Shown: positions 3,980 to 41,840, counted from the stretch's first letter. The stretch: DNA of 64,000 nt from a virus (IMGVR_UViG_3300037067_022526:32001-96000); one strand, 5' to 3'. Made by a program: numbers and translations. The notes: generated from the sequence alone by a model not told the origin.

Positions 3980-6233
3980 ACGTGTGTTTAATTTGGCAAA
4001 AATTTCAGCTGTCACTCCTGACAATGCTGCCAGAGAAGTAAGAGATGCATTAGACGATACTGAAGATACGCTTAGAAATCAGCAGAATGCCGAAAATGCC
4101 GCAAGTACCAATGATATTGAAAATTCAATTGGTCCCGAAGAACGAGCCACTTTAGATCAATATAGAATTTCTAATTTAGTCAAATCAATTCAACAAATTC
4201 TCTCAGACGATAAATACAGAACAATATCTGCTGCTGTGTATGCAAGGCCAGAGATACAATCTCTTATTGAGTACCAAAATCCCACGGTATTATTGGATAA
4301 AATTAAATCTATGGGGTTGGAAGGTGCAGCAGCAACTCTTGATGCAAGATCTAACGCCCTTGTGCAGCCCCAATTATTGAAAGCTTATTTTGATAGAATG
4401 GCCAGAATACTTGAACGACAAAATCGCAATTTACCTCCGGGCACCATGACTGGGTCTCCCACAGTACAGGGTCTGCCCGCACGAGCATTTAATGCAAAAG
4501 AAATAAGGAGGGGGCAGGTGGAGGCCCCAGATCCGGTGAATGAATTAGACAAGGGAATGTTTATTACGAAGTACCTCCCGATTTTGATTGCCTATAATGC
4601 TAATGATGCAAATAGTCAAGAAAGTATTTTATCAAATGAGGCAAAAAAGGAAATTTTAAGAAAGGTCAGTCGTGGGCTGGAAAATGATGCAAACGATGCA
4701 ATTGAAGCCGTACAACAAATGGACCCAATTAATGACGCTGAAAAGGCCAGAAATCGATTAGAAATATTATATGAAGTATTTATCGCACCGGCCGCTTTTG
4801 ACCCATCAAATACTATGGAGCCTGTAATGAGCACAAAAAATCCAAAAGGTATCATAGCTTTTAACCTTTCAGAATACATTCTGAATAACAAAGCAGAGAC
4901 AAGAGAAACGATGGTAAAAACTGCCGCTGATCAATTCGGGCAGCAATATTTGCTATATGGCCCAACAGAAAAACGTGTTTGTCCCAAGCTTAGAGGCAAA
5001 GGTGGTGGTCAACCTGGAAGCGGTGATGTTGTTTCAGAATATGTCTGTAGACATCACTGTTTAGATGGTATAGTTATTGATGACAATAAAACTATTTGTG
5101 GTGAAGCTCTTTGGCGCGCTAATGTGATGGACAAATATTCCCGCGAATATGTGGACAAGGATGGCAATATAGTTGGCGGATACTTGAATAAGAGATTTGA
5201 AATCAATCGCAATGTACCGGAAGAAAACAAAATGCGATTAAAGCCCGGCGAGATAAGAAAACCGCGTCCACCAGAGATGGGCAACTTGGAATCTCGTATG
5301 CAGGCAATGCGTGCAGCCGAAGGTAAAAAGCGTGGGTATCGTCCAGACACAAACACTGGAGACCCCTTCCGATGGGACACCGATGTAGACCAGAACAATG
5401 TCGAACAAACCCAAGCAGAAAGAGACCGAAGAGAAGAAGCCAGCGGACATAAAACAGTTCAATATACTGATAAGAATAAAATAGAAAATAATCCCAAGAA
5501 AGCGTTTAATCTAAAATCCGTTAAAACTGCCCAAACATTTGAAGATATCAAGTATGATTTTACATCTGGGCAAGAGAAAGCTCGGCAAATGAGTACTGAA
5601 GAATTGCATTTTGCTCTGAAAGATTTAAGAGAAGTAATTAAAATACAAGAAGACGCTCGTCGTGCGGGACATCATGTGCCTAAATTGGGGTATTATTGGG
5701 ACGAACTTCATACTTATGCTCAAGAATTAAAAAACAGACAAAATGCCAATAAATCAAAACAACCTTTAGTGGAACGAACTCCAGAACAAGATGAGTTTGA
5801 ATCGATGTTTGAACCTGAATCTAAATCTAAATCTAAATCAATGCCAACCGACGTAGTTCCCGGTTCTGGTGAAAAACCTAAACCAATGCCATATGGCGGC
5901 GAGCCATATACTGATGAAGAAATGGGACTAGACCAATATACTAAAGACCCATTTGGATATGAACTTTGGGAATGTCCTCGATGTGGAAATACAATAAGCG
6001 AAAAAGATACTAATAAGCACGGGAAAATATTTGATGAGGAGATAGATCTCCATAAATCAAATTGTGGTGATTACGAAGGCCCAATTAACGAACAAGACAG
6101 ATTTAATTTAAGACCAGATTTATATGAACAGCACGAATCGTCTAATAAAACTCCGGTCAAAACTTCTTTTAATCTCAAAGAAGCCAAATCCACCAAGATG
6201 GATAAATTATTAAATATTAAAAAAAAAATTTAG
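3927..6233 (+). CDS. Hypothetical virion protein with repeated xFNLK/KTAQ motifs; probable -1 frameshift extension to 6469
   Basis: 768-aa ORF (start uncertain) ending at an A10 run; the -1 frame stays open for 80 codons. Confidence 0.7.
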   Translation: MTNFLRGFLKPDSIQRAKRVFNLAKISAVTPDNAAREVRDALDDTEDTLRNQQNAENAASTNDIENSIGPEERATLDQYRISNLVKSIQQILSDDKYRTISAAVYARPEIQSLIEYQNPTVLLDKIKSMGLEGAAATLDARSNALVQPQLLKAYFDRMARILERQNRNLPPGTMTGSPTVQGLPARAFNAKEIRRGQVEAPDPVNELDKGMFITKYLPILIAYNANDANSQESILSNEAKKEILRKVSRGLENDANDAIEAVQQMDPINDAEKARNRLEILYEVFIAPAAFDPSNTMEPVMSTKNPKGIIAFNLSEYILNNKAETRETMVKTAADQFGQQYLLYGPTEKRVCPKLRGKGGGQPGSGDVVSEYVCRHHCLDGIVIDDNKTICGEALWRANVMDKYSREYVDKDGNIVGGYLNKRFEINRNVPEENKMRLKPGEIRKPRPPEMGNLESRMQAMRAAEGKKRGYRPDTNTGDPFRWDTDVDQNNVEQTQAERDRREEASGHKTVQYTDKNKIENNPKKAFNLKSVKTAQTFEDIKYDFTSGQEKARQMSTEELHFALKDLREVIKIQEDARRAGHHVPKLGYYWDELHTYAQELKNRQNANKSKQPLVERTPEQDEFESMFEPESKSKSKSMPTDVVPGSGEKPKPMPYGGEPYTDEEMGLDQYTKDPFGYELWECPRCGNTISEKDTNKHGKIFDEEIDLHKSNCGDYEGPINEQDRFNLRPDLYEQHESSNKTPVKTSFNLKEAKSTKMDKLLNIKKKI

Positions 6234-27945: not shown

Positions 27946-28020
27946 TAGTTTCTCGTAGTTAGAGACTATATGCCTTCCCCCAAAAAGGGAAGTGAATCAT
28001 AATAAACAAGGAGATAATAA

Positions 28021-28701
28021 ATGGCTCTTATAGAAGTATACCATGTTGTAGCGTCTAATCTTCCAATAGATCCAGATGTAACAACAGACATACCACAAGG
28101 TAGTATTATTGGTTTGAATCACGATGCCAATGTGGTTTTTGCCGATGCGGCTGCTGCCGTTAATGTACTACCTATCGGTATCGCCGGCGATTCTCGTTCG
28201 ACCGGAACCTCTTATACTCCTGAGTCTGGCTCTTCTCTGACTCGTGTGCCTGCGGTTCAAACCGATGGTGCCTTAATTATGGGTGCTTATGGTGCTGCAA
28301 GCAGACGCACACAAAACAGAGTAGCCGATCAGGGCAACGAGGTTCTTGCTAGTTGCAAGATGACTTGTTATCACTCAGGCGGTGAGTTCTGGACAGATCA
28401 GTATGAATTAGTCCAGGCCAATGCACACGACCTATGCGAGTATGTTCCGGGCGAACTACTGTACTGCTCGGCATCCGATGAGACCGTTGGCGCCGAAGAA
28501 GCCGCAGCTGGCGAAACAGCAGCTCGCGCAGGACGATTTACCGATAACCCTGTCACCAACTTTATTGTTGGTATGACAGTTCAAACACCGACTGCGTATC
28601 CAAGCGGTGTTCCAGGAACAGATGTAGGATTTACCGCTTTGCCAGAGGGTGGAAACTCTTTGTCCTACGGCACATTTCTACATGCCAAACTAACCCTATA
28701 A
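28021..28701 (+). CDS. Putative capsid decoration/cement protein
   Basis: 226 aa, Gly/Ala/Val-rich, strong RBS, directly before the capsid gene. Confidence 0.55.
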   Translation: MALIEVYHVVASNLPIDPDVTTDIPQGSIIGLNHDANVVFADAAAAVNVLPIGIAGDSRSTGTSYTPESGSSLTRVPAVQTDGALIMGAYGAASRRTQNRVADQGNEVLASCKMTCYHSGGEFWTDQYELVQANAHDLCEYVPGELLYCSASDETVGAEEAAAGETAARAGRFTDNPVTNFIVGMTVQTPTAYPSGVPGTDVGFTALPEGGNSLSYGTFLHAKLTL

Positions 28702-31700: not shown

Positions 31701-32878
31701 TGCGAAAAAATTCATCAATAATTTTAAGAATTAGCCAAGAAGATAACTTGCTATTAGATGTTAAATCTAAAATACTTAAAACTAATAAGTCCCAACTGTT
31801 GTTAAATGGGGCATTTAATTATTGGAATGGTAGCGATAAAGAGTGGTCAGATAAGTTGCTTAAACTATACCAAGAGAGTGATACAAATAAATCCCACATA
31901 GTTAATATGGTATTCGCATACTATCGCAGAACAGGGTATCCTCACCGCAAATTATCTAATCAGGATATGATTAAAATTATGCACACTTTATCTTCCACTA
32001 AGAATCCACTGATAGGTAATGACCATTTGCAGACCAACAATGTGGGTATACCCGTAGCTAGTTGTTTCCACCCTCATATGATGAAAGTGCGATGCCTATC
32101 CAGGTATTTGTCTCCCTCAGAATTATATAATAACGACGAAAAGTTTAAAGACGCCATCAATCGTTGTTTTGAATTGGGTAACAAACCAAACGAAGCGAAT
32201 ATTCGCCGTATCCTCCGCACTCGTGACGGTGTCCGTAGTGCAGTTAATTTTAAGCCAGTTATAGCTAAATATATTTATCAGAACTATGCCCCCACCGGAG
32301 GTAAGGTCCTCGACCCTTGCGCTGGCTACGGTGGCAGACTAACCGGACTTATCTCTACTAATAAAAACCTTCTCTATCACGGTATAGACCCCTGCCCAGA
32401 GACCACAGTGGGTAACACCCAACTAGCAGCCTTCTATTCCCGCCTATACGAACCCATAACTAAAGAATTGCAGTGGAAGTTTAGGTTTCGTCACGATTTA
32501 GGTTGCGCAGAGGATGTCTTGCCCACTTTGCCAGATAAAGAATATGATTTGGTCTTTACTTCGCCACCTTATTTTAATGTAGAACAATATGACACTTTGC
32601 CTAATCAGAGCTACCTCAGATATCCTGATTATGAGTCCTGGCGGGATAAATTCTTATCTGTTTTAATCAAAGAATCTTGCCGGGTCTCCAAGCAGTATGT
32701 AGTATTAAATGTTAAAAACTATAAGAGCTATCCGATAGCAGACGATGCTCTAAAGTTTGCGGAGCAAATGGGATATGGAATACATAAGACTTACCAAATG
32801 AGATTAGCCAATAGCGAATTTCACAGAAGAGAGAGTGAACCGACATATCATGTTGAACCTATTTATGTGTTGTTGTGA
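31697..32878 (+). CDS. Amino-DNA methyltransferase (N4-C or N6-A) with possible N-terminal RHH-like segment
   Basis: Motif I VLDPCAGYGG and motif IV FTSPPYF. Confidence 0.85.
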   Translation: MMRKNSSIILRISQEDNLLLDVKSKILKTNKSQLLLNGAFNYWNGSDKEWSDKLLKLYQESDTNKSHIVNMVFAYYRRTGYPHRKLSNQDMIKIMHTLSSTKNPLIGNDHLQTNNVGIPVASCFHPHMMKVRCLSRYLSPSELYNNDEKFKDAINRCFELGNKPNEANIRRILRTRDGVRSAVNFKPVIAKYIYQNYAPTGGKVLDPCAGYGGRLTGLISTNKNLLYHGIDPCPETTVGNTQLAAFYSRLYEPITKELQWKFRFRHDLGCAEDVLPTLPDKEYDLVFTSPPYFNVEQYDTLPNQSYLRYPDYESWRDKFLSVLIKESCRVSKQYVVLNVKNYKSYPIADDALKFAEQMGYGIHKTYQMRLANSEFHRRESEPTYHVEPIYVLL

Positions 32879-33239
32879 TTCACTCCCCTCCCCTTCATAG
32901 AGGAGAATCACCGATAATTGGGTGTTACCCACTACGGTTTCGTTGCAATTCACTCCCCTTTTCAGGGGAGAAACACCGTGGCATAAGGAGAAACAGCAGT
33001 GGCAAAGGTTGCAATTCACTCCCCTTTTCAGGGGAGAAACACCATTGGCGCATTGTTCTGTTGCCATGTCGTTGTTGCAATTCACTCCCCTTTTCAGGGG
33101 AGAAACACCCATCGAGTGATGTAGCGGTGAAAGCGTCGGTTGCAATTCACTCCCCTTTTCAGGGGAGAAACACCTTTATCTTTGCTGCTGCGTGGCCGTG
33201 GCCGTTGCAATTCACTCCCCTTTTCAGGGGAGAAACACC
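32872..33239 (-). CRISPR. CRISPR array 1: five identical 36-bp repeats plus one degenerate terminal repeat, five spacers of 29-30 bp
   Basis: + strand repeat GTTGCAATTCACTCCCCTTTTCAGGGGAGAAACACC at 32942, 33008, 33074, 33139, 33204; degenerate copy 32872-32912. Confidence 0.97.
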
Positions 33240-33380: not shown

Positions 33381-35687
33381 TCAAATCAATTCTTCCATGT
33401 ATCCCAAAAATTCAGTATCGTATTTTCCTGACCACACACACATTCCAGGTATTTTTTCATAGGGTTTAGTATAGTTTAAAATCGTTTTAATATTGCCTTC
33501 GAAAATTTGTACACTATTTCTAACTATATCTGTCGATGTTGGATATTCGATATTATCTATGTTTTCTGGTTTAACTATAACAGTTATTTTATTATTAGGT
33601 ATAACCTGATAAATGTCACCAACATCTTTCATGTATTTTTTTTGTTCAAAGCTCATTAAGCTCCCGATTGTAACAACTTTGTTATTTAAATTGCCAACTA
33701 CATTAAGATTGCCTATTTCATCTTCCATTGCTTCTGCGCAATGTTCTGGTCCTATTTTTCCGAGAGCGTAATATTCTCGAAAAATTTTTGCTCCATCTCT
33801 GAATTCTTTGTTTTCAGTAAAATCATCTAAATCTAACTCGAAAACGTATAGTGTGGAATCATTAAAGACATTATCTCGATTGATTCGACCAGCCAATTGC
33901 AAAGCACTATTTAAATTGCAGTTTTCTCTGAAACCATTTCTGAAAGAAATGTTTATTCCAGATTCTATGCACGATGTTGCAATTAATATGAAATTCTCAT
34001 CGGAACTTAATCGTGATTTGATATCTTCTAATATGACCTCTCGATCTGTAGCACAAAGTGCTGTGGACATGTGTAATACATGTTCACGCCCAATTATCTT
34101 TGATATTGTTTTTGCAACCAATGCTGCGTTTTTGACAGTGTTAAAAACCGCTACTACCGGACCTTTGCTGCGCTCATTTATAACAGCATTACAAATTTGG
34201 GGTAAAGATAGTTTATTCCAATGCCCGTTATCTTGTATGCCGCCTAATTGCTTTATTGTAACTCTGGATTTTTCTTGTTTAAGAGTTATCTCTGAAATCT
34301 CTGGTGGAACTATAGATGGGACATTATAATCAAAACCATCTAAGACATATTTTCTAAATCGCTTGATTTCCCAAGGCTTCGTCATAGACCCAGACACAAA
34401 CAGTACTCGGCATCCCATATTTTCAACTAACCATTTTAAGTAATATAATGTAAGTGGCCACAATTTTGAGGGCAGGCAACAATGAGACTCGTCAAAAATA
34501 ATGAATTTACCGGCTAAATTGAGATACTTTCTAAGCTTTTTAGGTGTGTATCCAGCCAAAGTTTCACAAAATTGTACTGCGGTTGTGCAGGTAATTGGAC
34601 AATTCCATGTCTGTGTATAAAGTTTTGCGGATAGATCATGTTCAAAATCTACTCCAAGATGATGCTCTGCAACGGTTAATTTATCATCTTCTTCGGGCAA
34701 AACAATTGCTTTTCTATAAGTGTCTGCAGTTTGGCTAATAATATTAGTATAAGGTGCAACATAAATTATACCTGACATATTATTAGTATTAACAGTATGT
34801 AAAGCATATGCCAAAGATGATAAAGTTTTGCCATTACCAACTTCACTAGCAAGATATGTAAATGATGCGGAAATTTCTGAATGTCTACACGATTGATATA
34901 TAGCTTGCCTTATTTTGTTCCTCTCGGTTTCTGCTGAAAAGCTACTAACATATTTATCTAGTTGTAGTAATCTTTCATTTGCTTTTATTGGGATTGTGTC
35001 TTCTACTATGAAGTTCTTGTAATTTTTAGCAGTGTCATAGTAGTCTGCTGTTACGAGTACGCTTAATGCTAATCTTGATAGTGGAGCACTAATATTCTTG
35101 TTATAATTCATTCCGCTTTTCAGAGGAGAAACACTTAGGGGTTCAACTAAATTTATTTCTTTTTTATGAAGTTCCATTAGCTTGTCTAATTTTGCATCGA
35201 CATATTCGCTCATGAGCATGTCTGTTTCTTTTACCCACGGACATCTTTCCCCTAGTAAATTATTATCTCGAAGGTCATCGTATAGATTTTTTTGGTATCC
35301 GAGATGATGAGCGAAAACAAGCCATGCTGCGTACCTATATTGATCTGATAAAGACATGTTCCCGTTTTGTGCTGCCTTGTCACATTGACTTATCAGATAA
35401 GACACACCGGCATCAACATGATTTGGCATTTTACAATTTAATACTTTACCACTTAAAACCATTTGACAATAAGGATCAAGCTTCCCTGTGTCATGGTACA
35501 AAATTGCGGTTAATAAATGACATTTTAGAAAATTATAATGATCTTCTGATATGAATGATTTTAATTTTTCTATTTCTTGCTCTGCTTTTAAGTATACACC
35601 AGATATATGATCAATAAAAGATTGTTCTGGAATGTTTCTTTCCAAATCTGCTGAATGGGCTAAGTTACAATTCACTCTACTTTTCAT
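33381..35687 (-). CDS. cas3: Cas3 HD nuclease-helicase
   Basis: AHS...H...YHDTGK HD domain; VGNGKT; IFDESH; ATSCIESGINI; QLAGRINR. Confidence 0.93.
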   Translation of the reverse strand: MKSRVNCNLAHSADLERNIPEQSFIDHISGVYLKAEQEIEKLKSFISEDHYNFLKCHLLTAILYHDTGKLDPYCQMVLSGKVLNCKMPNHVDAGVSYLISQCDKAAQNGNMSLSDQYRYAAWLVFAHHLGYQKNLYDDLRDNNLLGERCPWVKETDMLMSEYVDAKLDKLMELHKKEINLVEPLSVSPLKSGMNYNKNISAPLSRLALSVLVTADYYDTAKNYKNFIVEDTIPIKANERLLQLDKYVSSFSAETERNKIRQAIYQSCRHSEISASFTYLASEVGNGKTLSSLAYALHTVNTNNMSGIIYVAPYTNIISQTADTYRKAIVLPEEDDKLTVAEHHLGVDFEHDLSAKLYTQTWNCPITCTTAVQFCETLAGYTPKKLRKYLNLAGKFIIFDESHCCLPSKLWPLTLYYLKWLVENMGCRVLFVSGSMTKPWEIKRFRKYVLDGFDYNVPSIVPPEISEITLKQEKSRVTIKQLGGIQDNGHWNKLSLPQICNAVINERSKGPVVAVFNTVKNAALVAKTISKIIGREHVLHMSTALCATDREVILEDIKSRLSSDENFILIATSCIESGINISFRNGFRENCNLNSALQLAGRINRDNVFNDSTLYVFELDLDDFTENKEFRDGAKIFREYYALGKIGPEHCAEAMEDEIGNLNVVGNLNNKVVTIGSLMSFEQKKYMKDVGDIYQVIPNNKITVIVKPENIDNIEYPTSTDIVRNSVQIFEGNIKTILNYTKPYEKIPGMCVWSGKYDTEFLGYMEELI

Positions 35688-36161
35688 GGAAGAAACACCT
35701 CAATAGTAAGACTTTCAGTTGTAATTCACTCCACTTTTCAAAAGGGGAGAAACACCACGCCCGCCGATCTTTCCGCCGTCGGTTCCGTTACAATTCACTC
35801 TCTTTTTTCAGGAGAGAAACATCAAGTGTCAGCGTCATGTTGCAAGTCTTTCAAAAAATTAGTTGTAATTCACTCCCCCTTTCGGGGGAGAAACACCTCG
35901 TGATTTATGTTACCTATGCACTCGGCGGTTGCAATTCACTCCCCCTTTCGGGGGAGAAACACCTATACCCGAGTGGGGTACAGAAGTTGGCGTGTTGCAA
36001 TTCACTCCCCCTTTCGGGGGAGAAACACCCCCGCTCGTATAACATACCGTAACTGCCAGGTTGCAATTCACTCCCCCTTTCGGGGGAGAAACACCCGTCC
36101 TGAGAATCAAGCAATGCTAGGTCTAGTTGCAATTCACTCCCCCTTTCGGGGGAGAAACACC
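35664..36161 (-). CRISPR. CRISPR array 2: five canonical and three degenerate repeats
   Basis: GTTGCAATTCACTCCCCCTTTCGGGGGAGAAACACC at 35928, 35994, 36060, 36126 (one-base variant at 35862); degenerate copies at 35664, 35718, 35787. Confidence 0.95.
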
Positions 36162-36275
36162 CGAGCACTCATAACTTGGTATAATTCAACACTTTATGAG
36201 TGTTTAGGGTCACAAATTTTGAGATATTTGGTTTACTTTTCAAAGAACGCCTCTCGTTTTTTGCGAATTCTAGCT
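36162..36275 (-). promoter_or_regulatory. CRISPR leader 2
   Basis: Homologous to leader 1; IHF-like ATTCAACACTTTA. Confidence 0.7.
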
Positions 36276-37250
36276 CAGATCATGTACTTCAAAACTGAAT
36301 CCACATTCCGCAGCATTGGGTACATTGTAATCACTTAGACATATTGGTTTGTCGTTTTTTGCAGTAGGCTTAAGATTATTTATAAATTCAGTTTCTTTGA
36401 AACTTCCAATAGTATTAGAATGGTCTGCCCACCAAACATGTTGTAAATTCATCGAACCCGATGGACGTGCACACGAAGACGATGTTTCGAAAATATGTGG
36501 TAGTATTTTCTTAAGAATATCAATATCTTCTTGGGCAGCATTGGTCAGATGGGCACAATGCGGGTTGACGGAAATTAGTTGATAATACATGCCGTGACGA
36601 ATAAATTTTAGCGCATTTGGACCTATATCTCCAGAAGGATCTTTATCTTTGATCGTTCTTCCTGTATCTGTTGCCAGATGATCTGCGCTTAATGGCGACT
36701 TTTTTGTAACACTTGCCTCGATAATTTCCACTGGCGCAATTGAACACCCGACACCAATCGAAACACATCCAGTACGAACAAATCGAGGTTCTTCTTTCTT
36801 TTCCTTCTCTAGCCCATCTGGTAGAGCTGTTGTTCCGAAAATCCTGACATCAAAATATCGATTTAAAAAGGCTTCAGGGTCAGACTTGGCTAGCGCCATT
36901 GCTTTTCTGGCACATTCAAGCTCTGATGTTCCAGCGTACCCTTTGTTGCGGCTTTCAAATACATACAATCGTTCAGGGTCAAGATTGTCTCTCTTTACAA
37001 AATCCTTGAAAACCGGATTATCATGATCGGACAAGAAATCCCTGATCTTCCTTTTAATAGACATTGGTGATACCCACCCATATCCATCTGGAAATGTGCG
37101 TGGAGCATTTCCTACATCCGGGTCTCCGTTGGGATTTCCACAAATTACTTCATACACTAGCATTCCAACACTGCGATTCAATTGATACATTTTTTTCTCC
37201 AAAGTTGAATTTTCTGTTACGATCGTTTCTGATTTAATTGACTTATTCAT
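36270..37250 (-). CDS. cas7: Cas7 (Csd2, type I-C)
   Basis: GNPNGDPD...NAPR, SIKRKIRD, YFDVRIFG; start moved to ATG 37250 behind a GGAG RBS. Confidence 0.93.
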   Translation of the reverse strand: MNKSIKSETIVTENSTLEKKMYQLNRSVGMLVYEVICGNPNGDPDVGNAPRTFPDGYGWVSPMSIKRKIRDFLSDHDNPVFKDFVKRDNLDPERLYVFESRNKGYAGTSELECARKAMALAKSDPEAFLNRYFDVRIFGTTALPDGLEKEKKEEPRFVRTGCVSIGVGCSIAPVEIIEASVTKKSPLSADHLATDTGRTIKDKDPSGDIGPNALKFIRHGMYYQLISVNPHCAHLTNAAQEDIDILKKILPHIFETSSSCARPSGSMNLQHVWWADHSNTIGSFKETEFINNLKPTAKNDKPICLSDYNVPNAAECGFSFEVHDLS

Positions 37251-37716
37251 TGTTTTCTCCATTCGGATTTTCCACAGACACTTTTTCAAGATCAACACCG
37301 ATCTCTGACTTGACTGATTTTGGCGACCTATAAGCATATCCCATTTCCAGGAGTATTTTATAAATATCAGGATCAAACTCATTAAATTGGTTAACGCTCT
37401 TAAATTGATTATTATGTAAATCAGGCATTATATTCATAAGTTTACTAATTATTTCTTTATATTCTCTGATTGGCAAATAACCATGTTTATATGGCTCTTT
37501 TTCTTTGCGAATATAATTTTCTGCCCAACATTCGTACTTAGAAAAGTTTCCTATAAATGTTCCTAGCGCTCGTTTTGGAAATTTATATGCTTGCTGTATA
37601 TATTCTTGTCCGATAAGCTTTTGAGGTTCATTTATCCCTCTACTCTTAAAATATATTCGGTGAATATTGTTTGCTTGACTAAATAATTGTCCCATTAAAA
37701 ACGGCACACTGTTCAT
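37243..37716 (-). CDS. cas11: Cas11c, translated internally in frame from cas8c
   Basis: Internal AAGGAG-N6-ATG just before NSVPFLMGQLF, the arrangement known for type I-C. Confidence 0.65.
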   Translation of the reverse strand: MNSVPFLMGQLFSQANNIHRIYFKSRGINEPQKLIGQEYIQQAYKFPKRALGTFIGNFSKYECWAENYIRKEKEPYKHGYLPIREYKEIISKLMNIMPDLHNNQFKSVNQFNEFDPDIYKILLEMGYAYRSPKSVKSEIGVDLEKVSVENPNGENNE

Positions 37717-39186
37717 GATCATCTCCTTTGTAAAACCATTTTTACTCAAAACAATCCCCGAAATTGGCACCAGCCATTGCCGTTCATACGGCATTTTTTC
37801 TAATTTACCATCAGAACACTCAATTAGCATTTTGGTATGATTTTTTGCAAATATGCGAGTAACTTTTTTAATTGCTTTTTCGTTTTCGAAAAAGAAGTCG
37901 TATATATCTGAAATTGTTATATACTCTCGCTCTATAATAGATGATATTTTATTACGATCATTTTTCCATATTTTATTAATACATTTAGAAAAATTAGAAA
38001 TAGTTGGCGGGAGAAATTTGCCTTTGCAAACAAATTTAGACGGACGAGTTGATGTTCCGGATACCCATTTGTTTACACAATTAGCAATATTTTTTCCATT
38101 CATTTCTTTATGATATTTAATTTGACACGCACCATTTTTGGGTATAAATAGGACAAAAATTGAACATTGAAATGGTGTTTTATTAATCTCACCGTTTAAC
38201 ATGTGAACAATCTTTTTGCCCTCTGCCTCCCATTGTTCAATATCCATTTGGTTGGATTCTTCTGTTCGACCCTCAATCCAGTCAGATGAAGGTGATAGAG
38301 TAGTAATAACCAAATCTCTTCCGTTGTCTTTTTGGATATAATACCAGAGACCATTTCGAGTGCCTTCTTTTCCTAAATTGTTATAATAAAAATTCTCAGA
38401 TACAATAGAATTGATGATTTTCAGTATTTGTTTGCGAGTAGAATTTCCGATTTTGCACGCATTTACACCAGACATGCCAAATCGTTCATAGCATTCATTA
38501 TCCTCATTTTTAGAATAAAGTTTTATTGTGCCGACGCCGCAAGGGAGCTTGGTTTCAAATGTTTTTGATTTATTTTCCCACCCATCGGCAGGATTGTTGA
38601 GTATGTCGATATCGATAGATGAGTTTGTTTGTTTAGAAATAAGCCAATCATTCACCACCTTCATTGACTCACTATTTTGAACCTTATTGGAAAATTTTAA
38701 TTGTTTCCAATCTGGAATGTCTAGAGAAAAATAACAACTTTTGATCTTTTTATCTTGTTGTGAAATAAAGTCATCTAATTTGTTCATTAAAGCATTTGGA
38801 TCAATTCGAGATAATCTATTGGATAATTCTTTGAAAGCACAAAACCTATCTTGATCATCTATATGTTTAGATATATCGGAATGGCAATATAAATGATGTT
38901 TAATTCCATTCAGTCTTTTCTTAGAATCTTTATTAGTGTCATATTTGAAAGTAAATCCAGATGCAAAATTAGAGTATTTAAAATATCTAAGATCGGAAGC
39001 AGACTCAGACTCAAAAGGTTCGATAGCGATATCAAGATTCTTATCAATTAATATAAGAAAACGTTGACCGTTATTATTTTTGGGCATTTGTGGATGCCAC
39101 GTTGTATCGTTTGTGTTTGATAAATCCCCAATATTCAGACCCCAGCTTTTTAAACTTTCTTCAATTGATAATATTTCATGCAACAT
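37243..39186 (-). CDS. cas8c: Divergent Cas8c large subunit
   Basis: Position between cas5 and cas7; 647 aa; C-terminal PFLMGQLFS helical domain. Confidence 0.7.
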   Translation of the reverse strand: MLHEILSIEESLKSWGLNIGDLSNTNDTTWHPQMPKNNNGQRFLILIDKNLDIAIEPFESESASDLRYFKYSNFASGFTFKYDTNKDSKKRLNGIKHHLYCHSDISKHIDDQDRFCAFKELSNRLSRIDPNALMNKLDDFISQQDKKIKSCYFSLDIPDWKQLKFSNKVQNSESMKVVNDWLISKQTNSSIDIDILNNPADGWENKSKTFETKLPCGVGTIKLYSKNEDNECYERFGMSGVNACKIGNSTRKQILKIINSIVSENFYYNNLGKEGTRNGLWYYIQKDNGRDLVITTLSPSSDWIEGRTEESNQMDIEQWEAEGKKIVHMLNGEINKTPFQCSIFVLFIPKNGACQIKYHKEMNGKNIANCVNKWVSGTSTRPSKFVCKGKFLPPTISNFSKCINKIWKNDRNKISSIIEREYITISDIYDFFFENEKAIKKVTRIFAKNHTKMLIECSDGKLEKMPYERQWLVPISGIVLSKNGFTKEMIMNSVPFLMGQLFSQANNIHRIYFKSRGINEPQKLIGQEYIQQAYKFPKRALGTFIGNFSKYECWAENYIRKEKEPYKHGYLPIREYKEIISKLMNIMPDLHNNQFKSVNQFNEFDPDIYKILLEMGYAYRSPKSVKSEIGVDLEKVSVENPNGENNE

Positions 39187-39203: not shown

Positions 39204-39887
39204 TTATTTATTTAAATTTTCGTTTTCAAACTTTAGAATTCCATTGGCTGCGATTACTTTCTCGGGACCAAGTTGTAAAATTCCATGAGCGATTCGCAAA
39301 GTTTCTGTTATTGGAAATTGCATAATATATCCATTTTTTTTGTCAAAATATTGTAGGACATATCCGTGTAAAATTTCATTATAATCAGAAATTATGGGAG
39401 TTATAGGTAATCCGACATAATCAGAAAAAAAGTCGCTCGGACCAAGTGTCGGCATTCGATAATATTGTTCTTTACTTAATCGACGATAAAATTGATCGCG
39501 ATATGAATGGGCACAATTAATATGTGCGTATTTTGGGTGAGGTGGTTCTACGGTAGACCTTTTGGCGGTTGCACAAATTTGAAATCTAGGGCGAAGCAAA
39601 GCTGTAGCTTTTATTTGACATGCATTTCCATCTCTTTTCTGTCCTTCTTTTCGAATTGATGACCACGAATTAAAAGCATAATCTAAATATTCTGGTCGGT
39701 GACATATCCCGATAGCTTCTATTTGTATGGATGCACTTTTAACTCTTAAAATTGACTGCATTATACCAAATGCCGCAGTGGGCGTAGGAACTGGATAACT
39801 ACATGGTTCTGATCCGCTATCAGGTCTGGCGAACATGCCTATGGGTCCGCCAACCTCGAATATGATTCCGTAAGATTTCTGGTACAT
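39204..39887 (-). CDS. cas5: Cas5 (Cas5d-like, type I-C)
   Basis: FEVGGPIGMFARPD...SYPVPTPTAAFGIMQSI; AAGGAG RBS before ATG 39887. Confidence 0.9.
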   Translation of the reverse strand: MYQKSYGIIFEVGGPIGMFARPDSGSEPCSYPVPTPTAAFGIMQSILRVKSASIQIEAIGICHRPEYLDYAFNSWSSIRKEGQKRDGNACQIKATALLRPRFQICATAKRSTVEPPHPKYAHINCAHSYRDQFYRRLSKEQYYRMPTLGPSDFFSDYVGLPITPIISDYNEILHGYVLQYFDKKNGYIMQFPITETLRIAHGILQLGPEKVIAANGILKFENENLNK

Positions 39888-39906
39888 TCTGAATCTCCTT
39901 TCAAAC

Positions 39907-39935
39907 AATTATAACCTTAGCGTGATGGGAAGTCA
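39907..39935 (-). promoter_or_regulatory. sigma70-type promoter of the cas operon
   Basis: TTGACT-N17-TATAAT on the minus strand. Confidence 0.8.
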
Positions 39936-39973
39936 AGCGAGAGATATTAGATTTTTTAAAAATATTCGTGGCC

Positions 39974-40002
39974 TTGACAATTTACGTAGCAGGCAATATA
40001 AT
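39974..40002 (+). promoter_or_regulatory. Consensus sigma70 promoter, divergent from the cas promoter
   Basis: TTGACA-N17-TATAAT. Confidence 0.85.
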
Positions 40003-40011
40003 GGATTGTAA

Positions 40012-40046
40012 GATGTTTCTCCCCTAAAAAGGGAGTGAATTGCAAC
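40012..40046 (+). repeat. Solitary CRISPR repeat
   Basis: GATGTTTCTCCCCTAAAAAGGGAGTGAATTGCAAC, in crRNA-sense orientation. Confidence 0.9.
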
Positions 40047-40068
40047 GTGATGATGTCGAGGAAATCAG

Positions 40069-40353
40069 ATGTGGAATTTGACAGAACACGCAAAACCGGT
40101 CACCGGAGAAGAATCTTTAGTAATTTATACTTGTCCGCAATTTCTTGAGGACGAACATCCTGGTATATATTACATACACGAAGCATACTGTATACACAAT
40201 GGTTTCTGTCGTTATTACCCGGATGAAGGTTGGTTCTGTGGGGATAATAAAATGCCAGAACCCGTAGCGTGGATCCGTCCCGAAAAATTGTTAGAGTATT
40301 TTTTGACGCAACTACCCAGCAAAGATCAGTCAGCTACAACACCTTTCAGATAA
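40069..40353 (+). CDS. Hypothetical protein, paralog of 45268..45519
   Basis: MWNLTEHAKPV...WFCGD.KMPEP.AW.RPEKLLE shared with the paralog. Confidence 0.75.
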   Translation: MWNLTEHAKPVTGEESLVIYTCPQFLEDEHPGIYYIHEAYCIHNGFCRYYPDEGWFCGDNKMPEPVAWIRPEKLLEYFLTQLPSKDQSATTPFR

Positions 40354-41252
40354 TCAGATATCGCAGTCCTGATGATATCTACGTAAGAAATTTCACAGTC
40401 ATTTTCATATGCTTGCTTGCGGGCAACTCTTTTTAATTGTTCTAATTGATCACTCAAAATTCGGATGCTGATTGTGATATTCTCAACGACATTTTGAAAT
40501 TTCGACCCAAATTCACATCCGAAATCGCCATCAGACATATGTTGGTTTTCTTGCCGCAGCATCTCTTCGGTATAATCGGTATTCACTTCCCATGTGGGTA
40601 GTTGGCATATCAACCTGTAATCAGGTGCAGTTGAAATTAAATTATATAATAAATCGCCTTTGCGCCTTGGTGACGAGACTATAATAGTTCGTGATTCATG
40701 CACTCCGTCATGTTTGAAGTCGGCAGTGCTGGGAATCAATGCATTATAAATTCTATCACCCGACTGCCCTGGAAATGACGCGATCTCATTGAATACAAGA
40801 GTGAAATATCGCTTGCCCAGGAGATTTGAACTATTGGCGTGAGCAACCATTAAACAAATGTATCCTGATCGATTCCGCCTTGGCAACCAAATTTTGTTCT
40901 GCTCTATTTTGGTTATCTCATCTCGAAAATACTCAGATCGAGTAACAAGCAGTTTCAACTCCGTGAAGAAAGATCTTGCCTCCTCTGCACTATTACAAAC
41001 AGCAAGCTGATAAATCGTGTCCTGGTTTGGGATATTATAATATTCAAACGGATTTGGTATTTCTAATAGTCGCCGTGTCTCTGCCAGTAGCAGCAGTGTA
41101 GCAAGATAATCCTTTCCGCTACGTCTTCCCAAAACGGCAACTAACTCTCGGTATTGTCCAATATAGAAGTTGGACATGATTTCTTTTAACCTCGGATATA
41201 ACTTAATGTTAGGTGTAATTAAATATTGCTCGATAAATTCCATTGAAGTCAT
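40326..41252 (-). CDS. Terminase large-subunit ATPase-like domain fused to a C-terminal ribbon-helix-helix
   Basis: GRRSGKD Walker A; LVFNEIASF Walker B variant; IVSSP motif III; LPTWEVN; EFGSKF; then TISIRI...YVDIIRTAISDYL; start ATG 41252 behind AAGGAG. Confidence 0.75.
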   Translation of the reverse strand: MTSMEFIEQYLITPNIKLYPRLKEIMSNFYIGQYRELVAVLGRRSGKDYLATLLLLAETRRLLEIPNPFEYYNIPNQDTIYQLAVCNSAEEARSFFTELKLLVTRSEYFRDEITKIEQNKIWLPRRNRSGYICLMVAHANSSNLLGKRYFTLVFNEIASFPGQSGDRIYNALIPSTADFKHDGVHESRTIIVSSPRRKGDLLYNLISTAPDYRLICQLPTWEVNTDYTEEMLRQENQHMSDGDFGCEFGSKFQNVVENITISIRILSDQLEQLKRVARKQAYENDCEISYVDIIRTAISDYLKGVVAD

Positions 41253-41357
41253 AAAAAGCTCCTTTCTACTAATACTTACTTCGCTGTCATAATTATTTCC
41301 TGTAAGAATTATGACAAAATTTACCACATAATACATTATACAGCGCAGGAGATGTGG

Positions 41358-41583
41358 AATGTTTCTTCAATGAAGTGAATTGCAACTTGACAACTCCCAC
41401 AGCCAGCAGTATAATGAGCCGTAAGATGTTTCTCTTTTGAAAAGAGGAGTGAATTACACAACATGGTAGTGTGGATTTTACTCATCAATGCCATACTTTG
41501 TGCATTATTCTTCTTTTTCGGCGTTTTCTGCGGATGGAGTTTAAGCTCGGATATAGATGTTTCTCCCCTGAAAAGGGGAGTGA
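41358..41583 (+). repeat. Cluster of three degenerate CRISPR repeats with an embedded promoter
   Basis: Copies at 41358-41386, 41425-41462 and 41556-41583. Confidence 0.8.
41387..41415 (+). promoter_or_regulatory. Consensus sigma70 promoter
   Basis: TTGACA-N17-TATAAT. Confidence 0.85.
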
Positions 41584-41840
41584 TAAAAAATCATATTGCT
41601 GCCGGACAGAAGGGTGCAGAGCTTTTGCGTAATAAATTTGGACTTATTAATATAGAAACCAGATCGGAAAGATACCCCGAGTCCCAAAGTATATCTCCGC
41701 AAAAGGCCCTAGATTTATTAAATGTATCTTGTGTTTGGATATCCAAACCATCTCTTAATGTTGTCATAGAGACATCGACAGGGAATTACCGAGTGAGATT
41801 CAGTGAATTTGACCGATACTTTTTATGCGGAGACAAATAA
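41463..41840 (+). CDS. Hypothetical protein with N-terminal transmembrane helix
   Basis: Hydrophobic N-terminus; RBS supplied by a repeat; contains a repeat fragment. Confidence 0.5.
   Translation: MVVWILLINAILCALFFFFGVFCGWSLSSDIDVSPLKRGVIKNHIAAGQKGAELLRNKFGLINIETRSERYPESQSISPQKALDLLNVSCVWISKPSLNVVIETSTGNYRVRFSEFDRYFLCGDK

Follow-up and report, generated by a model that had tools for sequence, protein, structure and literature searches.

Solitary CRISPR repeats directly behind consensus promoters beside the type I-C-like cas operon of a phage: candidate crRNA-mimic leaders

Introduction

Why should a phage that encodes its own CRISPR-Cas system also carry single copies of the CRISPR repeat outside its arrays, directly behind consensus promoters, ahead of small genes and beside the cas operon? 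The question is raised by the window analysed here, a stretch of 64,000 nucleotides (bases 32001-96000) taken from a complete phage record of 137,762 bp that has inverted terminal repeats (IMGVR_UViG_3300037067_022526). A first-pass annotation had taken these copies either for repeat-bearing 5' UTRs through which Cas5d or Cascade controls phage genes, or for sources of decoy crRNAs. Our answer is tentative. We give a probability of roughly 0.4 to the explanation that the promoter-repeat cassettes yield crRNA-mimic leaders, which would be bound by the phage Cas5 and Cas7 and thereby compete for Cas proteins.

Results

Genome setting of the cas genes and arrays

On the minus strand, cas5 is followed by a gene for the large subunit, cas7, a leader with array 2, cas3, and a second, homologous leader with array 1 (Table 1). 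Cas5, Cas7 and Cas3 match type I-C families, though with scores below the curated cut-offs, and the 647-aa large subunit in the place of cas8 returned no match in a family search. The phage holds a full interference set of Cas5, Cas8, Cas7 and a Cas3 with HD domain. Because no Cas1 or Cas4 family match was found anywhere in the complete genome, the system appears to be a divergent, interference-only relative of type I-C. Both arrays are built from 35-nt repeats and spacers of 30-31 nt. In crRNA sense the repeat reads GTGTTTCTCCCC, then TGAAAA or CGAAAG, then GGGGAGTGAATTGCAAC, which gives a 7-bp hairpin followed by an 11-nt handle. No credible target came to light when two array spacers were searched in IMG/VR and both arrays in the phage records.

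Table 1. Coordinates of the features discussed, counted from the first base of the window unless a genome position is given
Feature	Position	Strand	Description
Unit F	27969-28003		before the gene at 28021
CRISPR array 1	32872-33238	-	5 repeats and a degenerate terminal repeat
cas3	33381-35687	-	HD and helicase domains
Unit E	35100-35134		inside cas3
CRISPR array 2	35664-36160	-	5 good and 3 degenerate repeats; the last overlaps the cas3 start
CreR-like candidate	35787-35896	-	repeat 5, 38-nt pseudo-spacer (35861-35824), degenerate repeat 6
cas7	36270-37382	-	matches Csd2
cas5 (type I-C-like)	39204-39887	-	first in cas5-cas8-cas7; PF09704; solved type I-C Cas5 (PDB 8g9t), E 3e-6; TIGR02593
Putative pseudo-spacer target	39898-39914	-	TTA flank and TAATTGTTTGAAAG; overlaps the cas -10 box and start site
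cas operon promoter	39908-39936	-	TTGACT-N17-TATAAT; divergent from P_A
Promoter P_A	39974-40002	+	TTGACA 39974-39979, N17, TATAAT 39997-40002; 12/12 consensus positions
Solitary unit A	40008-40046	+	GTAAG 40008-40012 and repeat core 40013-40046; nhmmer E 2.9e-9; CM 45.6 bits
ORF94	40069-40353	+	small DUF551-like protein; starts 22 nt after unit A
Unit B	41359-41386	+	6-nt internal deletion, handle intact; nhmmer E 3e-4; CM 34.2 bits
Promoter P_C	41387-41415	+	perfect TTGACA-N17-TATAAT (TTGACA 41387-41392, TATAAT 41410-41415); paralogous to P_A
Solitary unit C	41421-41462	+	GTAAG 41421-41425 and repeat 41426-41462; nhmmer E 8.1e-6
ORF125	41463-41840	+	heads a run of small plus-strand ORFs
Unit D	41557-41590	+	array-1-type hairpin inside ORF125, handle lost; nhmmer E 1.1e-7
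Canonical-type unit	genome 98336-98400, outside the window		TTGACT-N16-TATAAT-N6-GTCGCGCCTTGATAGGCGTGTGGATTGTAAG

Cassettes and further repeat units

Two homologous cassettes of the form TTGACA-N17-TATAAT-N5-GTAAGATGTTTCT begin at 39974 and 41387, and all coordinates given for them in the first-pass annotation held when they were checked again. The copies also proved to be in crRNA sense as proposed, with the arrays and cas genes on the minus strand and the units on the plus strand. The first cassette does stand back-to-back with the cas promoter, and 37 bp separate the two -35 boxes. Unit A lies 120 bp from the cas5 start codon, and units B-D lie 1.5 kb away from it.

Unit A agrees with the repeat of array 1 at 32 of 35 positions and is isolated, with no repeat debris adjoining it. 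It combines a weak stem of 5-6 bp with an intact 11-nt handle (TGAATTGCAAC) and is followed by a Shine-Dalgarno (SD) sequence, GAGGAA, and the ORF94 start codon. Unit C has a 7-bp stem and a degenerate handle (TGAATTACAC). As had been noticed, it supplies its own GAGGAG (41444-41449, in the 3' arm of the stem) and its repeat ends directly before the ATG at 41463. Of the two further fragments noted at 41358 and 41556, the first was located at 41359 (unit B) and directly abuts the -35 box of P_C, and the second, at 41557 (unit D), shares 26 nt identical to the array-1 repeat.

A repeat profile run by nhmmer over the whole 138-kb genome added units E and F. By nhmmer and covariance model, units A and C, and also B, D, E and F, lie outside both arrays. 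All six non-array units compared with their surroundings (A, C, D, E, F and the repeat at the cas3 start) are co-directional with the local gene, and D and E are sense-oriented inside mRNAs and read in frame. Rfam gave no family in the cassette region. A lost middle repeat between C and D was sought, and no similarity was found where it would be expected; an extension of the A/C homology into the two ORFs came down to a single 11/13 stretch and was rejected as unreliable.

Genes downstream of the cassettes

Each cassette precedes a real gene, as had been claimed. ORF94 has a paralogue in the genome (45268-45519, 54% identity) with unrelated upstream sequence, and a homologue search returned nothing besides it. 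By predicted structure it resembles phage DUF551 proteins (Atlas match), its own model being of low confidence (pLDDT 63). ORF125 joins an N-terminal segment of 39 aa that is lineage-specific to a conserved C-terminal domain, with a homologue (P0029) of 67% identity over residues 37-122 in four Logan contigs (L022-L025). The 3' end of unit D is precisely where homology to these relatives sets in; there the window reads ...GGGGA followed by GTGATAAAAAATCAT and the relative reads ...TGG followed by GTAATCAAAAATCAT. Upstream, the relatives show a normal ribosome-binding site and neither repeat nor consensus promoter. Since the relatives are without them, P_C, units C and D and the first 39 codons belong to the CRISPR-bearing lineage alone, and unit D marks the edge of a region that the relatives do not have.

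Promoter rarity and a third unit of foreign repeat type

Promoters of this quality are rare in the phage. The pattern TTGAC(A/T)-N16-18-TATAAT occurs 10 times in the whole genome on both strands, where a back-of-envelope estimate puts the chance number at far fewer than 10. Behind three of these 10 near-consensus promoters, at a distance of 5-6 nt, comes a CRISPR repeat: unit A, unit C and a further unit that lies beyond the window. The cas promoter is itself one of the remaining seven. The unit outside the window does not mimic the phage's own repeat. It matches GTCGCGCCCCGTGCGGGCGCGTGGATTGAAAC, the canonical I-C repeat described from Legionella (PMC5071653), at 8/8 bases of the 5' end and 10/12 bases of the handle, and its handle overlaps the SD of a short leader ORF that precedes tRNA genes. 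No array of the canonical I-C repeat type was found in the phage genome, and decay of a resident array therefore cannot explain this unit. Since the third unit copies a different repeat family, the layout with a repeat at the transcript start must have arisen at least twice in this genome. Another IMG/VR phage (L069) likewise carries TATAAT-N6 followed by an I-C repeat.

RNA structure signals

Among 15 distinct sequences of the repeat family, two-sided changes occur in 5 of the 7 stem pairs. Stem cells are paired in 89.5% of cases, against 83.7% in shuffles, and none of 500 shuffles reached the observed value; the alignment for this comparison was fitted to the model, which favours structure. 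In unit C, three C-to-T substitutions in the 5' arm and one G-to-A substitution in the 3' arm all keep the pairing (4/4), by way of one two-sided change and two G-U changes, and the G-U pairs work only in plus-strand RNA. The folds of the other units differ in quality. Unit D folds with z = -4.0, while the hairpin of unit A is weak and no better than its shuffles (z = -0.5), and the 5' arm of unit A has an alternative predicted pairing with the SD of ORF94.

A CreR-like candidate in the tail of array 2

Position 6 of a guide goes unread in type I complexes. The seed search used for the solitary units (see Discussion), when applied to the array spacers, turned up a match that had not been anticipated. 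The pseudo-spacer in the tail of array 2 begins TAATTTTTTGAAAG, the minus strand at 39911-39898 reads TAATTGTTTGAAAG, and 13 of 14 PAM-proximal bases match, the sole mismatch falling at position 6. The putative target takes in the start site of the cas promoter and the final four bases of its -10 box, and the degenerate repeat behind the pseudo-spacer still folds. TTA, the flank of the target, belongs to the PAMs with which the I-C system of Legionella reached 95-99.5% interference (PMC5602111). Random 14-mers of equal AT content find 0.11 other such matches in the genome, which puts the probability that any of the 20 tested sequences would match the 40-bp target at well below 1 in 1000. The match might alternatively be explained by shared descent or by a protein-binding motif; the motif T-N-TTTGAAA(A)G has eight copies in the genome, seven of them within the 8.9-kb CRISPR locus, including both leaders.

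Relatives and conservation

The closest Cas7 (43% identity) is found in another intein-bearing phage contig (L017), where cas5, cas8, cas7 and the array follow in the same order and the repeat, GTGTATCTCTCATGTAAATGAGAGTGGATTACAAC, is homologous; no solitary unit was found in 10 kb upstream there. Another viral locus with an array (L030) also showed no solitary repeats. Among 50,697 phage records, blastn found nothing that matched the region, and the cassette pattern had no match in IMG/VR; the Cas5 query returned only itself from IMG/VR and a set of 5.8 billion proteins, and the repeat pattern gave only chance matches without hairpin in viral, metagenome and genome collections. Three independent assemblies of the phage (the others being L021 and L027) are 100% identical over the region and consequently carry no population variation signal.

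The first-pass annotation had held that lack of conservation in related phages would mark the cassettes as decayed array debris. The lack itself is borne out in part, as the cassettes are absent from L017 and from L022-L025, but these relatives are too distant to prove debris. With the nearest relatives distant and the assemblies identical, conservation neither supports nor excludes a function. The independent promoter-repeat unit of another repeat family and the hairpin-preserving substitutions argue against pure debris.

Discussion

Leaders that would compete for Cas proteins

In the explanation that we favour, host sigma-70 RNA polymerase would start about 4 nt before the crRNA-sense copy of the phage's own repeat, and the transcript would continue into ORF94 or into the ORF125 gene run. 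Phage Cas5 would recognise the leader by binding the hairpin base and handle, and would cut unit A, with its intact handle, at the stem base; Cas7 would then coat the RNA behind the handle. The products would be target-less crRNA mimics, rivals of the true crRNAs and of the CreR-like array-2 RNA for Cas5, Cas7 and Cas8. Such titration would be Racr-like and aimed at the phage's own system, and competition with the CreR-like RNA would relieve the autorepression of the adjacent cas promoter.

Competition of this kind would give a reason for the back-to-back arrangement of the cas promoter and a strong promoter-repeat unit. It is supported by the three of the ten strongest promoters that precede a crRNA-sense repeat, with the cas promoter as a fourth, and by the stem-preserving changes together with the shared direction of unit and gene in 6/6 non-array units. 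The phage encodes the type I-C Cas5 and Cas7 that the model calls for, and the CreR-like pseudo-spacer matches the cas promoter. Tested Racrs, moreover, inhibit cognate systems (PMC10651486), and in CreR circuits other crRNAs lift repression by competition (bioRxiv 10.1101/2023.03.10.532045). On the other side, a decoy made from the phage's own repeat would blunt its own interference too, the damaged handle of unit C and the weak hairpin of unit A fit the model poorly, and the nearest relatives are without the cassettes. Units B, C and D, furthermore, could be the remains of a third array; C and D are 131 nt apart, about two array periods, and D resembles a degenerate terminal repeat.

Control in cis of the genes that follow

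The first of the two proposals of the first-pass annotation, control in cis, is on the unlikely side. The repeat in the 5' UTR would serve as an operator for Cas5 or Cascade, and translation or stability would change when it is bound, coated by Cas7 or cut at the stem base, so that ORF94, the ORF125 operon, cas3 and others would follow the level of Cas5. The geometry speaks for it. In every leader-type unit the start codon stands 0-25 nt from the unit end, inside the expected footprint of Cas5/Cas7 (22 nt for A, 0-3 nt for C, with the cas3 start ATG in the loop, and likewise for F), although a compact phage genome would give tight spacing anyway. In the canonical-type unit the SD overlaps the handle. 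Cleavage of unit A would release the ORF94 SD with which its 5' arm can pair, whereas a cut in unit C, whose sole SD sits in the stem, would part that SD from the ATG, and the effects predicted for A and C differ in sign. The repeat-like units D and E are sense-oriented within mRNAs, but the handles of C and D are degenerate, and a limited literature search found no natural precedent for Cas5d-controlled mRNAs.

An extension of this idea, a post-transcriptional regulon of at least five mRNAs that respond to Cas5 or Cascade, in addition to autorepression of the cas promoter in the manner of CreR, strikes us as doubtful. It is just as doubtful that its members would be ORF94, the ORF125 operon, cas3, the gene at 28021 and, through the foreign repeat, the tRNA operon.

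Inert remnants of a decayed array

We also consider it rather unlikely that the promoters are ordinary early promoters and the repeats inert, tolerated leader sequence left over from a decayed third array and from one duplication of a promoter-repeat pair. Arrays do decay in place here and become overprinted by coding sequence, as the tail of array 2 entering cas3 and the in-frame units D and E show, and with neither cas1 nor cas4 in the complete genome the arrays cannot renew. The exact start of ORF125 homology at the end of D would fit the boundary of an island or array, the cassettes are absent in relatives, and the promoter and repeat shared by A and C point to one event. Simple decay accounts poorly for the exact N5-N6 placement, which is seen again with a foreign repeat family of which this genome holds no array, and for the four substitutions of unit C, all of which leave the stem paired. 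The uniform orientation bias across the units and the solitary position of A, with no repeat debris nearby, also weigh against it.

Guides against siblings or against the phage's own promoters

Two proposals treat the units as guides. In the first, which we regard as improbable, the handle and some 30 nt of the downstream gene would direct Cascade against sibling phages without the insertion; no more probable is its corollary, that the phage's own copy is spared because the repeat end (AAC) occupies the PAM position. The full interference set, Cas5, Cas8, Cas7 and Cas3 with HD domain, and the AAC flank of the self copy agree with such a weapon. No sibling allele of ORF94 was found, however, only the in-genome paralogue with its unrelated upstream sequence; the ORF125 relatives are without the N-terminal segment that would be the protospacer, and the handle of C is damaged. 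Unit B was considered separately as a guide against its own promoter and rejected, the flank being the repeat end AAC and not a PAM.

The second proposal, raised in the first-pass annotation, that sequence behind the repeats leads Cascade in CreR/CreA fashion to a partly matching phage promoter, is scarcely credible and, for targets within the phage, looks largely refuted: although unit A adjoins the cas promoter like many creR genes (bioRxiv 10.1101/2023.03.10.532045), a search with the 44 nt behind each unit against the whole genome, every sixth position ignored, gave units A-D no PAM-proximal seed of at least 8 bases near any phage promoter (the best match of the cas promoter to the sequence behind A is 6 nt with an AGC flank), no second pseudo-repeat follows A, and the tail of array 2 seems to fill the CreR role.

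Comparison with known systems

CreR/CreA and viral Cracr RNAs (bioRxiv 10.1101/2023.03.10.532045, 10.1101/2024.10.29.618823) resemble this locus in having degenerate repeats beside a cas promoter. The flagged cassettes differ from them in having neither a target match nor a second pseudo-repeat. The CreR-like candidate is a separate element 4 kb off, and its layout in the array-2 tail is complete, with a pseudo-repeat, a pseudo-spacer matching the cas -10 box and a second pseudo-repeat. The locus is also of interest as a small I-C variant that does without adaptation genes and carries a candidate regulator of its own.

Virus-borne mini-CRISPR arrays take part in conflict between viruses (Medvedeva et al. 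2019, as summarised in PMC11656645). Going by that summary, the likeness lies in the minimal CRISPR components carried by a virus, and units B and C formally make up a repeat-spacer-repeat. The 'spacer' between them differs, being 43 nt long where those of the arrays have 30-31 nt and being itself the promoter; a genome search with it matched only itself and found no target.

The closest counterparts are the viral solitary repeat units (SRUs) and the RNA anti-CRISPRs (Racrs), which disable cognate systems by sequestering Cas proteins (Camara-Wilpert et al. 2023, PMC10651486). Viral SRUs often lie immediately downstream of a promoter, their selection rule asks for a promoter within 250 bp upstream, and the type I-C unit RacrIC1 shares an operon with a protein-coding gene (PMC10651486). 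Here, too, a single repeat mimic in a phage stands directly behind a strong promoter, the hairpin and handle are kept, and the transcript can include a protein gene. The consensus promoters of both cassettes end 5 nt before GTAAG and the repeat, well inside the range of that rule, and sequence and structure are like those of a repeat from a defined subtype, the I-C assignment coming from Cas5, Cas7 and Cas3. The unit outside the window mimics the canonical I-C repeat in the way expected of a classic Racr. Units A and C depart from SRUs, first described as having no cas association, in that they flank the phage's own cas operon, copy its own repeat and form 5' leaders of coding genes instead of separate small RNAs.

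By these sequence-level criteria the cassettes are a cas-linked variant of the viral SRU/Racr class. Viral solitary repeats as decoys against host CRISPR and their promoter-proximal placement in phages are already known; what is new here is the cognate, cas-adjacent setting, the leaders of coding genes, the co-occurring foreign-type unit and the candidate CreR-like element. If the phage Cas5 binds or cuts the units, they would show, in a natural setting, an enzyme of CRISPR RNA processing coupled to gene expression; or else they would act as competitor RNAs that adjust a CreR-type loop of autorepression, a use of the solitary repeat akin to that of the Racrs and turned on the phage's own system.

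Gene content of the CRISPR-cas locus and its relatives

No match to the Cas1 or Cas4 families was found across the complete phage genome, and the system is therefore considered interference-only. The array spacers gave no credible target either in IMG/VR, for two spacers, or in phage records, for both arrays. At L017:11034-11201, on the contig of the nearest Cas7 relative, the 3' end of cas7 runs into the first array repeat, so that the stop codon lies in the repeat loop, and gene and array follow each other without an intervening leader. Many prophage-like contigs (L018, L019 and L028-L039) also carry a Cas7/Csd2-like gene, at 25-31% identity; among these fetched loci, none except L030 had a CRISPR array. 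In the two annotated contigs, L018 and L019, this gene adjoins small unknown ORFs, and no cas3 was called near it.

The gene that separates the two promoter-repeat cassettes has its true start at 41252, with AAGGAG as the Shine-Dalgarno (SD) sequence. Its context speaks against its being the packaging gene, despite the terminase-like match.

Features discussed in this part (window positions unless marked otherwise)
Feature	Position	Strand	Remark
Unit A, including its 5' extension GUAA	40008-40046		extension cassette-specific; predicted pairing with handle
Unit C, including its 5' extension GUAA	41421-41462		extension cassette-specific; predicted pairing with handle
Motif T-N-TTTGAAA(A)G	33324, 35857, 36246, 36961, 38828, 38942, 39907		in CRISPR-cas locus
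308-aa gene between the cassettes	40326-41252	-	match to the ATPase portion of the large-terminase family phrog_2 (E 9e-11)
Unit E	35100-35134	-	repeat-like, inside coding sequence (HD region of cas3)
Unit D	41557-41590	+	repeat-like, inside coding sequence (ORF125)
cas3-start repeat	35664-35698	-	repeat-like, inside coding sequence
Unit F	27969-28003	+	repeat-like hairpin with partial handle (TTCCCCCAAAAAGGGAAGTGAAT); intergenic gap before gene at 28021
CreR-like candidate, array 2 tail	35787-35896	-	pseudo-spacer match to cas promoter
Putative pseudo-spacer target	39898-39914	-	-10 box of the cas promoter plus its start site; 13/14 match
Promoter and canonical I-C repeat mimic	L020:137-201 = genome 98336-98400		past window end; TTGACT-N16-TATAAT-N6, then GTCGCGCC...GTGGATTGTAAG
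Promoter-proximal I-C solitary repeat, another phage contig	L069 (IMGVR_UViG_3300009875_000001), around 5580-5640		TATAAT-N6-GTCGCGCCTACAATGGGTGCGTGGGTTGAAAC

A CreR-like candidate and a clustered motif

The pseudo-spacer of the CreR-like candidate agrees with the cas promoter over its nucleotides 1-14, the sole mismatch being at position 6, and the match is flanked by TTA, a functional I-C PAM in Legionella (PMC5602111). A further pseudo-spacer match, at 38824 (+) within the large-subunit gene, has GGA as its flank. The T-N-TTTGAAA(A)G motif occurs eight times in the 138-kb genome; all copies except one fall within the 8.9-kb CRISPR-cas locus, and they include the leaders of both arrays, the cas 5' UTR and the array 2 pseudo-spacer.

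Repeat-like units in and before genes

Units E and D and the cas3-start repeat share one common reading frame of the repeat, which encodes the peptide (V)SPLK[R/S]G... In the 5' part of ORF125 (41463-41590), homology to 67%-identical relatives (L022:9867-10199) sets in precisely where unit D ends on its 3' side; unit D therefore marks the boundary of DNA absent from these relatives. Codons 1-39 comprise a hydrophobic helix and the repeat-encoded peptide, where the relatives have an unrelated 16-aa N-terminus instead. Unit F, whose closest counterpart is unit A, lies 10 nt upstream of the SD of the gene that follows it.

In the promoter-proximal units A and C, the GUAA extension could pair with the handle bases UUGC and UUAC, respectively, and the G-to-A change in the unit C handle turns a predicted U-G pair into U-A. 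Such pairing would form a second weak helix closing the entire repeat.

Solitary I-C-type repeats behind promoters

A short leader ORF takes its SD from the handle end of the I-C mimic; downstream of it come a terminator-like hairpin and tRNA genes. Its repeat family has zero arrays in this phage. The L069 repeat stands at the identical TATAAT-N6 spacing. The pre-tRNA unit is a classic Racr-type (viral RNA anti-CRISPR) unit.
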